Source: a virus
Lineage: Duplodnaviria; Heunggongvirae; Uroviricota; Caudoviricetes
Reading direction: 5' to 3' (one strand)
Virus record (IMG/VR): IMGVR_UViG_2667527592_000002
Length of the DNA: 64,000 bases
The translations under genes and the position numbers were made by a program. Below the pieces are notes generated by a model that saw only the letters and a list, made by a program, of their open reading frames with translations, was not told where the DNA came from and ran no database searches. The first letter of the stretch is position 1. The number at the start of each line of letters is the position of its first letter. Positions 7,873-60,773 of this stretch are shown here, one piece after another.

Positions 7873-8871
7873 ATGCAATCACTGAATACTGTTACGGATC
7901 GCTTCTCCCTGGTAGAGAAAATCCGCAAACACACACCGCAGAACAACCGAAATTACGTCATTCAGTCGGTACGAGACACATTCAACTCGCCAGAAACAAA
8001 AGAGCGTATCGCGCTGGGGGAGATGTATGGTTATTACGGTCATGGTCGCCGGGCGATGCACTATAACAAAACGAAAAGCCTGAACTTGCCGGAAGTCTCT
8101 GTTGTGATGGTAGATGGGAAGCCTGTTGTATTGGAGAATGTGCCGTCAAACAGGACTATCGACATTTCGATTGACGACAACGGCATTGTTACGCATACGC
8201 AGGAAATACTGGATACAGACACCGGGCGTATTGTTCAGGGCATGATTAATTCTGGTGCTGGTGGTTGGTCGTGGGCTACATCTGGTCCAGATTCATCGGT
8301 ATCCCTGGTAAAGTCTTTCCACGGCTTTGATTACGTAACTGTGCCTAACTATATCAGCCTCGACAAGAAAAGCCTGATGCTTGAATCAGCAGAAGAGCGC
8401 GATGCGGCTATTCATGCAGCACTTATCGAACAAGGTTTTACCGATAACGCTGCTACGGATCTGGTTCACCACTTTTCAGCAATGAAAAATCAGCAAGCCA
8501 TGCTCGAATCTGCACATCGTGAAGCCCTGGAATCAGAATTGATGCTCCTTGAAGTGGAAAACATACAGCTTCGAGATAAGCTGCGCGCTCAAACAGCGAT
8601 GATGGAAAGCCAGGGGGAAAATGCAAAGCAATGCCGCCGGATTTTGCGTGACGCTATCCAGGAAATGCCTGTTTTTATCAGCGCAGAACAGCGCCGGGCG
8701 CTCTGCCGTATGCAGTCTGAAGATGATGCCCGCATAGTGGCTGCGATGCTTGAATCTCTTGGGGCAAATGCTACTTATGGCTTACCGGTATCAGGCAAGA
8801 AAGAACCAGAGTTATCACCGAAGGAGAACAAAAACACCACCCCGTTACTCTTCGTTTCTAGAAGGGGGTAA
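7873..8871 (+). CDS. hypothetical protein (head protease/scaffold position)
   Basis: 332 aa, C-terminal coiled coil; position after portal-like gene. Confidence 0.25.
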   Translation: MQSLNTVTDRFSLVEKIRKHTPQNNRNYVIQSVRDTFNSPETKERIALGEMYGYYGHGRRAMHYNKTKSLNLPEVSVVMVDGKPVVLENVPSNRTIDISIDDNGIVTHTQEILDTDTGRIVQGMINSGAGGWSWATSGPDSSVSLVKSFHGFDYVTVPNYISLDKKSLMLESAEERDAAIHAALIEQGFTDNAATDLVHHFSAMKNQQAMLESAHREALESELMLLEVENIQLRDKLRAQTAMMESQGENAKQCRRILRDAIQEMPVFISAEQRRALCRMQSEDDARIVAAMLESLGANATYGLPVSGKKEPELSPKENKNTTPLLFVSRRG

Positions 8872-8889
8872 CCGCCTTGTTAAGTTAAA

Positions 8890-8899
8890 TTTCTAACAT
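8890..8899 (-). promoter_or_regulatory. TGTTAGAAAA-type recurrent motif (candidate operator)
   Basis: tttctaacat on + strand, followed by palindrome gtgtatttatatacac (8901..8916). Confidence 0.4.
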
Positions 8900-8984
8900 A
8901 GTGTATTTATATACACTGTTGATCCTGGTGGATGGGATCGAGTAGGATCGCGGTCACTGCTCCGGTAGCGACTGCCAAAAAAGC

Positions 8985-9009
8985 AAAAGCCGCTGAGAAG
9001 CGGCTTTTT
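8985..9009 (+). terminator. rho-independent terminator
   Basis: aaaagccgct-gaga-agcggctttt followed by T-run. Confidence 0.6.
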
Positions 9010-9071
9010 GGGTGTATAAATCCACTGCCATAGATTTATACGGTAGATAGATTTTTTCACGGAACTATCTG

Positions 9072-10034
9072 GTGAGTATTTTAAATTCAGTTTCAGTAAC
9101 TTTCAACACTTCTGAGTATAAAAACAACACTGAATACCACAAAAAAATCAAAGGTCATCAGTTGAGTTTTTTTGCTCGTCATAGCGGTCTTCTTTCCCCT
9201 TCACATAGCGCCATTATTGCCGAGTTCGCCAACCTGGCAGGGTCTACCGATGAATACATGATCCGTCGCTCATATGCTGATATGTCCGAGATTACAGGAC
9301 GCAGCATTTCTACTGTGCGCCGGGCATTTGCTGAAGCGACGAAGTGCGGAATGCTTGTTAAGCAACATCAGGTAGCGAATAACAATGCCCAGGTGTGTAA
9401 CGTATATCGGTTTACGACACAATTTCTCCACTTCATTCATGTAGCAATGGAGATAGGGGGTAAGCAGGGCATCAAATTTGCCAACGCCACAAAGCTGGTT
9501 AAGCAATTGATTTCAAAGGTACGTTATTTTTTTGAAACTGGGAACCCCCTGTTCAAATTGAACAAGTCCCCCCATGTTCAAAATGAACAGCCAATAGAAA
9601 ATAAGAGTCACTCTATAGCCAAAAGAAGAGAAAGATCATGCGCGGTTCAGCCAAAGGCTTCACTAGCAAATAGTTCTCAAGCGGATAATGGGTGGCTGGA
9701 TAAAAAACCAGTAATCAGGGAAGAACATACCAACCACTGCCTGGCGGCGGCAAAAGCGAGAGCTGCAAAGCGTCGTTCAGACGAGGGGCACGCAAAACGG
9801 CAGGCTCTGTATCGTACCGCTGAAAAGCTGGCAAAAAAATTTGCATGGATACGTAGTGCCGCTACCGCAGTGAATAAGCCTAAACAATCCAGCGCCCTGG
9901 ATTTCTCAATGGATTATTCTGGCTCCCAGGGGTGTGCAACCATTGGTGAAGCCTTTGACCTGATGAAACAGCGTGGCTATCGGTCTGAATTTGACCGTGA
10001 GGATTGGTCAATCCCTGCGGGATTTAGGGGATGA
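9072..10034 (+). CDS. HTH DNA-binding protein, possible lytic replication initiator (RepL-like; speculative)
   Basis: 320 aa; ...MSEITGRSISTVRRAFAEATKCGMLVK... HTH; two internal palindromes TGTTCAAATTGAACA / TGTTCAAAATGAACA at 9550..9589. Confidence 0.3.
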   Translation: MSILNSVSVTFNTSEYKNNTEYHKKIKGHQLSFFARHSGLLSPSHSAIIAEFANLAGSTDEYMIRRSYADMSEITGRSISTVRRAFAEATKCGMLVKQHQVANNNAQVCNVYRFTTQFLHFIHVAMEIGGKQGIKFANATKLVKQLISKVRYFFETGNPLFKLNKSPHVQNEQPIENKSHSIAKRRERSCAVQPKASLANSSQADNGWLDKKPVIREEHTNHCLAAAKARAAKRRSDEGHAKRQALYRTAEKLAKKFAWIRSAATAVNKPKQSSALDFSMDYSGSQGCATIGEAFDLMKQRGYRSEFDREDWSIPAGFRG

Positions 10035-10086
10035 CCTGTGTGTCTACAAAACATCCCAATGATCGGAAAATGCTCGCTCGATAATT

Positions 10087-10098
10087 TGTGTTAGAAAA
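10087..10098 (+). promoter_or_regulatory. TGTTAGAAAA-type recurrent motif
   Basis: tgtgttagaaaa; second partial copy tgtttctaaat about 10 nt downstream. Confidence 0.4.
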
Positions 10099-10447
10099 TT
10101 AATTTGCTGTTTCTAAATCGGAATGTATGATCTGCATCATCGACTGAAGTCATCCATTGCTGAAATTTTTAGTTGATCTTCCATGTTTTCAGGCTTATAT
10201 TCATGCCGTCGTAGCAAATTCTGCGACCGGGTTTGACAGCCTGAATACTTACGCGGACAACCGCACATTTCCGATATTGCGGTATTTTTGTGTCCGTAAA
10301 ACCACGTTACGCCCGAATTATGGTGGGGCGTGATGGGGAGGCTTCGGCCTGCTGGTTTCGTAAGTGCCAGTCTGTCAACCCTGTCACGTCCTGCCACCTG
10401 TTTGACAGCGGGTCGCAGGTTGTTTATCAACTTACGAGGCCGTAACT

Positions 10448-10672
10448 ATGGTTAATGCCAATCCTTGCTCACGTCCAGAATTCATCTGGCGTTTCCACTC
10501 CCTGCAAAAACACTGCGATCACTTCGCAATTGCCGCAACCGAAAAAGAAGCCCGTTCTCTGATCCCTGATCAGTATGGTGTTCTTACTGGTCGTTTCTCT
10601 ACTTCCCCACAACCAAACACTAATCCCTGGTATCGCAATATTACCAATCCCGGAATTGCGGAGGCACACTGA
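10448..10672 (+). CDS. Icd-like small protein (cell-division inhibitor family; copy 1)
   Basis: 74 aa, ...EFIWRFHSLQKH...AIAATEKEAR...; paralogue at 50569..50784; precedes Ant-like gene with ATGA overlap. Confidence 0.45.
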   Translation: MVNANPCSRPEFIWRFHSLQKHCDHFAIAATEKEARSLIPDQYGVLTGRFSTSPQPNTNPWYRNITNPGIAEAH

Positions 10673-11379
10673 TGGAAATCTGCATTCTTGAAAAGCCATC
10701 AATGACCAGCATTGAGATCGCGGAGCTGGTGGGAAGTCGCCCGGATAACGTTAAACGCACTATTGAACGCTTGAGTAAATCAGGTGTTATTCCACTTCCT
10801 CCAATGGAGGTTTCCGAAAATATCAATAACTTAGGATTTAAAGTTAAAAATTCACACTACGTCTTCGAAGGCGAGCAAGGCAAGCGTGACAGTATCATTG
10901 TCGTTGCGCAGCTTTCTCCCGAATTCACCGCCCGGCTGGTGGACCGCTGGCGCGAACTGGAAGAACAAGTACGCCAGCCGTTGACCGAAATAGAGATGAT
11001 CGCCGCAATGGCTGCAAATGCAGTTCAGCAGCAAAAGCGGCTTCATGTTGTTGAGTCAAAGGTTAGCCAGGTGGTAGAAACCGTCGAGCAAATCAAGAAG
11101 GGCAACATGCCGGAAGGTTACATTGGCTACCGCCAGCTGGCGGCGAAATGCGGCCTGACCGAAGCCAAATGCCGCAACCTTGTCAACGCTTACCGGATTC
11201 CCACCGATACGCATGAGTTTTTAACTCCAGAGGGGGTATTGTCGCGTCGTTCCATCGTCGCCTTATCTCCCTTCATGAATGCTTTTAACCGGATGATGTC
11301 GGAGGCTGAACACCGAGGAAAACGTTGGTATCACCCAAAAATGGGGCAATTCCAGGTGATCGGTTGGGGAGGTGAGTGA
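10672..11379 (+). CDS. Rha/Ant-family antirepressor (copy 1)
   Basis: N-terminal MTSIEIAELVGSRPDNVKRTIERL (phage Rha-type motif); paralogue of 50784..51725. Confidence 0.7.
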   Translation: MEICILEKPSMTSIEIAELVGSRPDNVKRTIERLSKSGVIPLPPMEVSENINNLGFKVKNSHYVFEGEQGKRDSIIVVAQLSPEFTARLVDRWRELEEQVRQPLTEIEMIAAMAANAVQQQKRLHVVESKVSQVVETVEQIKKGNMPEGYIGYRQLAAKCGLTEAKCRNLVNAYRIPTDTHEFLTPEGVLSRRSIVALSPFMNAFNRMMSEAEHRGKRWYHPKMGQFQVIGWGGE

Positions 11380-60730: not shown

Positions 60731-60773
60731 CATTTGTGTTAGATAATTAACATGCATTTTCTAACACAAATGG
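60731..60773. promoter_or_regulatory. perfect 12-bp inverted repeat pair containing the TGTTAGA motif (candidate operator)
   Basis: catttgtgttag...ctaacacaaatg separated by about 19 bp, immediately upstream of rdgC-like start. Confidence 0.5.

Follow-up and report, generated by a model that had tools for sequence, protein, structure and literature searches.

Where does a phage-plasmid of the P1 family begin its lytic replication, and can the gene for the initiator contain its own origin? The question is raised by a 64,000-nucleotide stretch of Caudoviricetes DNA, IMG/VR record IMGVR_UViG_2667527592_000002, the whole of which is called the window below. A preliminary description, made from the sequence without database searches, had pointed to two palindromes inside the open reading frame (ORF) at 9072..10034 and had suggested, by analogy with the lytic origin oriL of P1, that the ORF is an initiator gene with its own origin. 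In the P1 GenBank record, RepL is annotated as acting at an oriL inside repL, and the origin region marked there spans the entire gene. Here we present sequence comparisons indicating that the ORF is a repL gene and that the two palindromes, together with the A-rich tract that follows them, are likely the D6-type counterpart of P1 oriL.

Two palindromic repeat units within a single ORF

The sequence and a pattern scan bore out the description of two palindromes 25 bp apart, each after a C-run and both in coding sequence. Dyad 1, TGTTCAAATTGAACA at 9550-9564, is a perfect 7+1+7 palindrome that follows a C-run at 9545-9549. Dyad 2, TGTTCAAAATGAACA at 9575-9589, has perfect 6-bp arms around a 3-bp spacer and is preceded by a C-run at 9568-9573 and then an A. 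The order over 9545-9589 is gggaa, CCCCC, TGTTCAAATTGAACA, agt, CCCCCC, a, TGTTCAAAATGAACA, gcc, and both dyads fall about 475 bp into the 320-codon ORF, which is on the plus strand. Exact matches to TGTTCA-N3-TGAACA in the 64-kb window were limited to these two dyads, the starts of which are 25 bp apart. When up to one mismatch was allowed, the pattern TGTTCANNNTGAACA occurred three times in 64 kb against 0.24 expected, a count reached by none of 100 shuffles. A repeat search recovered both dyads as one 20-nucleotide direct repeat, CCCCCTGTTCAAATTGAACA and CCCCATGTTCAAAATGAACA, the copies of which are 90% identical and spaced by 25 from start to start.

The ORF encodes a homolog of P1 RepL

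To place the ORF, its surroundings and its product were compared with known phages, plasmids and protein families. A 1.3-kb segment around the ORF matches Escherichia phage D6 at 97% nucleotide identity. The segment also matched 111 non-mobilizable plasmids, about 90 kb in size and from E. coli, Salmonella and Shigella, and its identity to 109 of them was 90-99%. The D6 counterpart of the ORF is orf20, annotated as "lytic replication protein, similar to P1 gene repL," and its neighbors are pro (head processing protease) on one side and the icd/anti-repressor genes on the other, with darB beyond. We conclude from these matches that the window is a D6-like, P1-family phage-plasmid.

A tblastn search with the ORF protein retrieved P1, P7 and their relatives, with 26-30% of residues identical across 92% of the protein (E = 1e-13 to 1e-17); identity to P1 RepL was 27% at the amino acid level over 92% of the length, with an E value of about 1e-16. 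Pairwise alignment with P1 RepL gave 95 invariant columns, and the two proteins have in common the helix-turn-helix segment and a C-terminal W-x-IPAGFRG. The cluster representative P0001, which is 98% identical to the ORF protein, is assigned to the Pfam family PF26868 (Phage_P1_RepL), as are all of the relatives. A Pfam scan of the ORF protein returned a weak HTH_36 match alone, and PF26868 was not among the models in the copy of Pfam used for that scan. The Phage_P1_RepL family is small: 1.84 billion representatives, searched with a profile, yielded 28 clusters at an E value of 0.001 or below. The preliminary description had named homology to a non-replicative regulator as the finding that would speak against an origin; the homology found was to RepL. 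We conclude from these alignments that ORF 9072..10034 is a true homolog of P1 repL, the lytic replication initiator gene.

Other initiator families were considered for the ORF protein and dropped. The Pfam scan gave no match to PF05732, the Firmicute plasmid RepL family, and the common name "RepL" is a coincidence. Membership in the Rep_3 iteron initiators was set aside because the scan found no Rep_3-type domain, the protein has one confident winged-helix domain, and the DNA carries two repeat units only. Membership in the λ O family was likewise abandoned, as there was no Phage_rep_O match at an E value of 1 or below in the Pfam scan; the likeness to λ is in how the origin works and not in family. 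PHROG 391, "replication initiation O-like," matched weakly (E = 6.8e-7), an NCBIfam search of the ORF protein returned no family, and a sequence search against solved structures returned chance-level winged-helix regulators only.

The palindromes align with repeat units ahead of the P1 AT2 tract

The P1 lytic replicon was dissected by Huan, Brown and Wang (2023), who stated that the exact oriL sequence and the mechanism of RepL were unknown and that the place of RepL binding could not be determined (PMC9948254). In their study, 11 synonymous changes in a 43-bp A/T-rich tract called AT2 abolished RepL-driven plasmid amplification, AT2 was needed both in cis and in trans, and truncated noncoding fragments with AT2 were active in trans (PMC9948254). 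The integration host factor (IHF) and DnaA sites in P1 repL were dispensable, as was kilA, and P1 lytic replication was reported to need repL transcription (PMC9948254). The authors remarked on an unexplained C/G-rich sequence ahead of AT2, and their text nowhere mentions a palindrome, inverted repeat, dyad or iteron (PMC9948254). Nothing relevant came up when the literature was searched for inverted repeats in this replicon; the repeats may already have been described in older work on P1 or in the paper on the D6 genome.

At the position aligned with the dyads of the window, P1 repL reads cacaCCCCCa, TGTCAAAATGATA, CCCCCTCCCCC, TGTCAGGATGACG, tg, and then at once AT2, GCAATAAAGAATAAGAAGTCACAAGTTAAAAAAACAAAAAGATC. 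P1 has, directly ahead of AT2, two units of its own, CCCCCA-TGTCAAAATGATA and CCCCC-TGTCAGGATGACG, 24 bp apart. The smallest active P1 target, T5, runs from CCCCTCCCCCTGTCAGGATGACG to AAAAAGATCAGTTTCCGGCGGTGCCGG, about 87 bp, according to the primer sequences in the supplement of PMC9948254. The authors described T5 as containing "only" AT2 (PMC9948254); by the primer sequences, it keeps the proximal C-run/dyad unit and is without the distal unit and the DnaA box. A perfect DnaA box, TTATCCACA, abuts the C-run of the first repeat unit in P1 repL (locus L002, 1880-1900).

The counterpart of AT2 in the window, 9590-9637, is GCCAATAGAAAATAAGAGTCACTCTATAGCCAAAAGAAGAGAAAGATC, and it has in common with P1 the series CAATA, 3-4 nucleotides that are mostly A, AATAAGA and GTCAC. 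Of all 40-mers in the gene interior, the one at 9592-9631, within this tract, has the lowest stability, with a free energy of -45.9 kcal/mol, an A+T fraction of 0.68 and a purine fraction of 0.70. The A-rich tract also holds the two copies of AGCCAAWAG found in the window, 28 bp apart at 9589-9597 and 9617-9625, and a near-copy, AGCCAAAGG, lies 32 bp beyond the second copy at 9649-9657. After the GATC, 9638-9661 is nearly identical in nucleotide sequence to locus L003, from the RepL clade at 65% identity. Because of this near-identity and the AGCCAAWAG copies, the origin block may extend to about 9661.

The two-unit arrangement is found in all RepL clades examined

A generic rule was run on about 400 kb of sequence, made up of the window and 94 loci. 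It required nnTCA-N3-TGAnn, at least 66% purine in the next 45 nucleotides and, 24-25 bp upstream, a TCA. This site was the sole match in each locus that got through the purine filter, and the rule matched nothing elsewhere; two loci (L091 and L093) failed the filter. In each RepL clade for which DNA was fetched, a pair of units spaced by 24-25 bp precedes a purine/A-rich tract.

The sequence of the units differs from clade to clade. In the D6 type (22 loci), the units are CCCCC-TGTTCAAATTGAACA and CCCCCCA-TGTTCAAAATGAACA, the arms are invariant, and the lone variant (L018) alters the spacer only. The clade at 65% identity (L003 and L028) has TGTTCAAAATGAACA and TGTTCATGATGAACA, that is, TGTTCA and TGAACA around AAA or TGA. 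The Enterobacter clade, at 31-35% identity (L004, L029, L030 and L087-L089), has CCGGTCT-GATCA-NNN-TGATC twice, with invariant arms around five kinds of spacer (GCA, GGG, TGC, TGA and TAT). The P1 type (56 loci) has CCCCCA-TGTCAAAATGATA and CCCCC-TGTCAGGATGACG with one variant, in L033 and L080, in which TGTCA...TGATA becomes the fully symmetric TATCA...TGATA. The distant clades have a C-run and GATCA or GGTCA-N3-TGATC: L091 carries a C-run before each of GATCAAAATGATC and GGTCAAAATGATC, and L092 and L093 have a decayed distal dyad and a perfect proximal one (GATCATTTTGATC and GATCAATTTGATC). Wherever one dyad has decayed, the proximal dyad, the one kept in P1 T5, is intact.

Across clades the arms change on both sides together (GTTCA with TGAAC, GATCA with TGATC, and TGTCA with TGAYR), and the 3-bp spacers vary. 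In a set of 18 distinct dyads, complementarity holds in 92% of the cells of the five arm pairs, with two-sided changes in eight cells at the two outer pairs; none of 500 shuffles reached the observed values, and shifted registers collapsed, although the dyads were put in register by hand at the homologous position, and the pair statistics thus illustrate the pattern and are not a blind test of it. The intact dyads have three positions that are not Watson-Crick pairs, one each in P1 dyad 1, P1 dyad 2 and L091 dyad 2, and all three are G·T on the top (coding) strand. Family members known as protein only have a linker with PPxQ[NS]D twice, eight residues apart, which is the in-frame product of C-run-nnTCA-N3-TGAnn, and for one member, P0012, the dyad is predicted to be GCTCA-N3-TGAGC. 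Scans for further loci found none for P0016 in viral contigs and Enterobacter-type loci only for P0012; in genome contigs they found two P1-type loci only. We conclude that nnTCA-N3-TGAnn, present twice at 24-25 bp directly upstream of the proposed unwinding tract, is a candidate RepL recognition element.

Two further features of the dyads were observed. In L004, L029, L030 and L087-L093 the arms are GATCA and TGATC, which gives every intact dyad two GATC sites for Dam; in the D6 and P1 types the dyad sites are lost, and a GATC is kept at the end of the A-rich tract. The dyad sites may be a sign that in some lineages the origin is under methylation control. Enterobacter-type repL genes also have a lone C-run and half-site, CCCCCGATCA, about 80 nucleotides before the start codon (about 1363-1377 in L004 and about 1415-1430 in L029), which could be autoregulatory or could be there by chance.

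Constraint on the block acts on DNA

The dyads lie in codons, and their conservation could in principle reflect selection on either the DNA or the protein. The 25-bp spacing of the D6 type puts the two copies in different frames, and therefore they encode the dissimilar peptides PLFKLNK and PHVQNEQ and are not a peptide repeat. When the window was compared with L003, nucleotide identity was 0.85 in the block and 0.68 outside it, and amino acid identity was 0.61 in the block and 0.65 outside. Over 9552-9656, comparison with the clade at 65% identity gave nucleotide identities of 0.78-0.89 and amino acid identities of 0.47-0.67, and the reverse relation held in most of the remaining gene. Moreover, the codons that specify the same amino acid in the window and L003 were identical in 19 of 19 cases inside the block (gene nucleotides 475-567) versus 102 of 189 outside (Fisher P = 1.8e-5), and the same freezing of synonymous sites was seen in four Enterobacter-clade pairs (P = 9e-6 to 2e-3). 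The different reading frames and the frozen synonymous sites lead us to conclude from these codon comparisons that the constraint on the block is on DNA and not on protein.

An AlphaFold2 model of RepL, built from a shallow alignment of six sequences, was consistent with a weakly constrained protein segment at this position. The model has a confident N-terminal domain (residues about 18-157; predicted local distance difference test score of 80-89) comprising a helix-turn-helix and a beta-hairpin wing, followed by a segment predicted to be disordered (residues 159-216), a long helix (residues 217-262) and then a less confident tail. The predicted disorder begins at nucleotide 9546, exactly at the first repeat unit, and therefore the proposed origin block is written into codons of the disordered linker, where protein constraint would be weakest.

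Origin reading and its alternatives

The proposal in the preliminary description, an initiator gene with its own origin, is supported by the RepL homology, the alignment of the dyads with P1, the conservation across clades and the frozen synonymous sites. The dyads are most likely the RepL binding sites for starting phage replication. In the mechanism that we propose, repL would be transcribed and translated once repression is lifted, and RepL dimers would bind each dyad by means of their N-terminal winged-helix domains. The recognition helix would read the conserved TCA/TGA core, and specificity for a clade would come from the flanking bases. Binding, probably aided by transcription through the site, would then open the adjacent purine/A-rich tract, and a host or phage helicase and the replisome would be loaded for theta replication. 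RepL binding to the dyads, melting of the tract and origin activity of the D6 type are steps that we infer, and the identity of the helicase and of the part of RepL that would recruit it is a matter for speculation.

Some observations weigh against an origin at this site or against the dyads as its binding sites. Cumulative GC skew over the window has no switch at 9.5 kb, and the sole switch, at about 36 kb, tracks gene orientation and is uninformative for an origin. The window tract is 62-68% A+T versus about 80% in P1 AT2. There is no DnaA box (TTWTNCACA) in the repL gene of the window, though P1 has one beside its first unit; the P1 boxes are dispensable, and because such features are dispensable in P1, we regard kilA, the DnaA boxes and the IHF site as accessory to, and not defining of, a P1-type lytic replicon. 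The P1 mutations hit AT2 alone and never the dyads, and one dyad was enough in the overexpression assay. The hand-set register of the dyad statistics counts on the same side, and a hairpin accounts for the G·T departures no less well than a duplex binding site does.

It is accordingly worth asking whether the dyads act not as duplex sites but as single-strand hairpins, formed either by the repL transcript or by the top DNA strand once unwound, with a role in transcription-coupled origin firing, in structure-specific recognition or priming, or in pausing of repL translation or transcription. We consider this unlikely. Two-sided changes that keep the arms complementary are a need of a hairpin too, all three non-Watson-Crick cells are G·T on the coding strand, the top strand of 9540-9645 folds as DNA better than its shuffles (z = -3.9), and a need for repL transcription has been reported for P1 lytic replication (PMC9948254). 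Nevertheless, stems of 5-7 bp around 1-3 nucleotides are marginal, the RNA fold is unexceptional (z = -2.0), copy 1 and copy 2 pair with each other in the best fold instead of forming two hairpins, three G·T cases are a very small sample, and a winged-helix initiator beside dyad sites is the ordinary layout for dimer binding. A fuller version, to which we give a similarly small chance, has strand-specific hairpins or a cruciform extruded on repL transcription and recognized by RepL, and a purine-rich transcript of the adjacent tract that remains paired with its pyrimidine template and, as an R-loop, primes or opens the origin. If that were so, oriL would be a transcription-primed origin within its own initiator gene, which would account for both the transcription need in P1 and the coding-strand G·T departures.

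Initiators commonly repress their own genes via inverted repeats, as established for iteron plasmids, and the dyads might be RepL operators for autoregulation only, or an in-gene roadblock, with the origin in the A-rich tract alone or elsewhere. That the P1 tests covered AT2 mutations only leaves room for such a role, but the dyads are about 475 bp within the gene, away from the promoter, no site resembling TGTTCA-N3-TGAACA is present upstream of repL, the unit is fixed directly against the A-rich tract in every clade, and one unit is retained in the minimal replicating target of P1; we judge this reading slightly less probable than the hairpin. Least probable is that the repeat is a linker motif of the protein with no DNA function. 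Most family members do have PPxQND-like peptides eight residues apart, but the frame shift between the D6-type copies, which yields unrelated peptides, largely refutes a peptide motif, and the frozen synonymous codons, the excess of nucleotide over amino acid identity in the block and the predicted disorder of the linker all speak against it as well. A host-factor site was rejected because the half-site sequence differs among RepL clades, and the half-site is not known to match any E. coli regulator consensus. We conclude that RepL binding sites beside an unwinding tract are the most likely reading of the locus.

The candidate element occurs in three natural specificity variants, GTTCA, TGTCA and GATCA. 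If confirmed, it would define a minimal oriL, would make orthogonal RepL/oriL pairs possible for copy-number control, and would serve to locate the lytic origins of hundreds of phage-plasmids of the D6-like and P1-like kinds in E. coli, Salmonella and Enterobacter; resistance genes are present on some of these elements.

Features flanking repL

The features of the locus are collected in Table 1. The palindromes that the preliminary description had noted upstream of the ORF, AGTGTATTTATATACACT and GTATAAATC-N10-GATTTATAC, proved real, and each is unique in the window. The former is kept in L003 as AGTGTATTAATATACACT, also beside an operator-like motif, and is loose and imperfect in L004. It was considered as a P1-type late promoter and rejected, as the -22 boxes of LPpro and LPlyz (AAGTGACTA and ACAAGTGAT) had no convincing match and the palindrome is not repeated in the window.

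Table 1. Coordinates of repL, the proposed origin and flanking features in the window
Feature	Coordinates	Strand	Basis or remark
repL, D6-type lytic replication initiator gene, 320 amino acids, GTG start	9072..10034	+	ORF list, D6 identity, RepL homology, PF26868
Repeat unit 1, C-run and dyad TGTTCAAATTGAACA; candidate RepL-binding site, distal	9545..9564		
Repeat unit 2, C-run, A and dyad TGTTCAAAATGAACA; candidate RepL-binding site, proximal to A-rich tract	9568..9589		
Purine/A-rich tract ending in GATC (9634-9637); P1 AT2 counterpart, candidate DNA unwinding element	9590..9637		Alignment with P1 AT2
Block under DNA-level constraint (dyads and A-rich tract); proposed D6-type oriL core	9546..9638		Window versus L003 codon comparison
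Codons of predicted N-terminal winged-helix DNA-binding domain (residues about 18-157)	9123..9542	+	AlphaFold2 model
Copy of 14-bp motif TGTTAGAAAAYTAA, about 175 bp upstream of repL; probable D6-type C1 repressor operator	8885..8898	-	
Palindrome AGTGTATTTATATACACT	8900..8917		Unique in window; directly after operator-like motif at 8885-8898
G+C-rich hairpin with T-runs on both sides; predicted intrinsic terminator	8985..9008	-	Terminator scan; inverted repeat; last hairpin of folded minus-strand transcript
Inverted repeat GTATAAATC-N10-GATTTATAC; proposed antisense RNA stem-loop	9014..9041	-	Unique in window; equivalent in L003
Sigma-70-like promoter, TTGAAA-17-TAAAAT, in first repL codons; candidate antisense promoter	9078..9106	-	Promoter scan

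The 14-bp motif TGTTAGAAAAYTAA has 16 copies in the window versus 0.84 expected. Besides the copy upstream of repL, they are at 10089-10102, 14493, 19990, 21033, 22282, 22438, 26560, 30993, 31080, 32403, 44497, 49101, 49754, 60737 and 60753. Copies flank repL on both sides, the one at 10089-10102 precedes the c4/icd/ant immunity region, and those at 60737 and 60753 form a facing pair. The P1 C1 operator, ATTGCTCTAATAAATTT, had no match in the window with up to three mismatches. Because the copies are scattered and asymmetric in a pattern like that of the P1 operators, we take the motif to mark the probable operators of the D6-type C1 repressor.

No plus-strand sigma-70 promoter for repL was found at the threshold of the scan. 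The minus-strand promoter-like site within the first repL codons, with 10 of 12 matches, was the best in 8700-10700, and both of its hexamers are kept in L003, though in coding sequence, which makes their retention weak evidence. RNA of the minus strand from 9072 to 8976 folds into a 12-bp stem-loop and a U-run terminator (z = -5.5). The folding and promoter predictions suggest a candidate antisense RNA of about 90 nucleotides that would start from the repL start codon and cover the repL ribosome-binding site.

On the other side of repL, Rfam models above their gathering scores matched the a1/b1 targets of C4 at 10195-10247 (+; 55.9 bits) and C4 antisense RNA at 10316-10401 (+; 69.6 bits), and an isrK match at 10208-10289 was just under threshold. 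The C4 RNA features lie between repL and icd, and therefore the immI region is directly downstream of repL in the window, the reverse of the P1 order c4-icd-ant-kilA-repL. The Chi sequence, GCTGGTGG, is strongly enriched, with 43 copies in 64 kb versus 1.6 expected; Chi enrichment has likewise been reported for P1.

Comparison with known systems

The upstream antisense prediction would parallel the antisense control of the kilA-repL operon of P1 by P53as (PaskilA, AF234172), with a candidate antisense promoter, stem-loop and terminator facing the 5′ end of the transcript of the lytic replicon. The P1 antisense RNA opposes the 5′ region of kilA, whereas the candidate in the window would oppose the repL ribosome-binding site, and the likeness, like the candidate itself, is a prediction only.

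Iteron plasmid origins such as P1 oriR/RepA, pPS10 and R6K resemble the locus in having a winged-helix initiator, direct repeats of about 20 bp by an A+T-rich unwinding element, and nearby GATC. In contrast to those origins, the window has two units only, each internally palindromic, in coding sequence, its initiator has no Rep_3-type domain, and the replicon would serve lytic amplification and not copy-number-controlled maintenance.

The layout is analogous to that of oriλ, which lies inside λ gene O and has four 19-bp iterons of dyad symmetry, to which the N-terminal domain of O binds as dimers, with an A+T-rich region adjacent. In both cases the origin, proposed in the window, falls in the segment of the initiator gene that links the N-terminal DNA-binding domain to the rest, dyad-symmetric repeats adjoin an A-rich tract, and transcription through the region is implicated. 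The units of the window are two and shorter, and, unlike in λ, we found neither a Phage_rep_O match nor evidence in the window of a helicase loader partner resembling λ P. The weak PHROG "O-like" match is compatible with a distant relationship to λ O.

The closest system is the P1 lytic replicon. The window RepL is only 27% identical to that of P1 at the amino acid level, its half-sites are GTTCA/TGAAC and not TGTCA/TGAYR, and its 25-bp spacing puts the copies in different frames, whereas the spacing in P1 is 24 bp. Nor does the window have kilA upstream, as repL directly follows pro and lies ahead of the c4-icd-ant region, and it differs further in the missing DnaA box of repL, the missing match to the P1 C1 operator and the less A+T-rich tract. 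The two systems nevertheless agree in a homologous initiator with the C-terminal IPAGFRG in common, in an in-gene layout of two C-run/dyad units 24-25 bp apart before a purine/A-rich tract ending AAAGATCA, and in being part of a genome of the P1 type, which carries prt, pro, darB, icd, ant and c4. The feature described here thus appears to be the D6-type counterpart of the known P1 oriL, and what the comparison adds is a concrete candidate for RepL recognition in three sequence variants.

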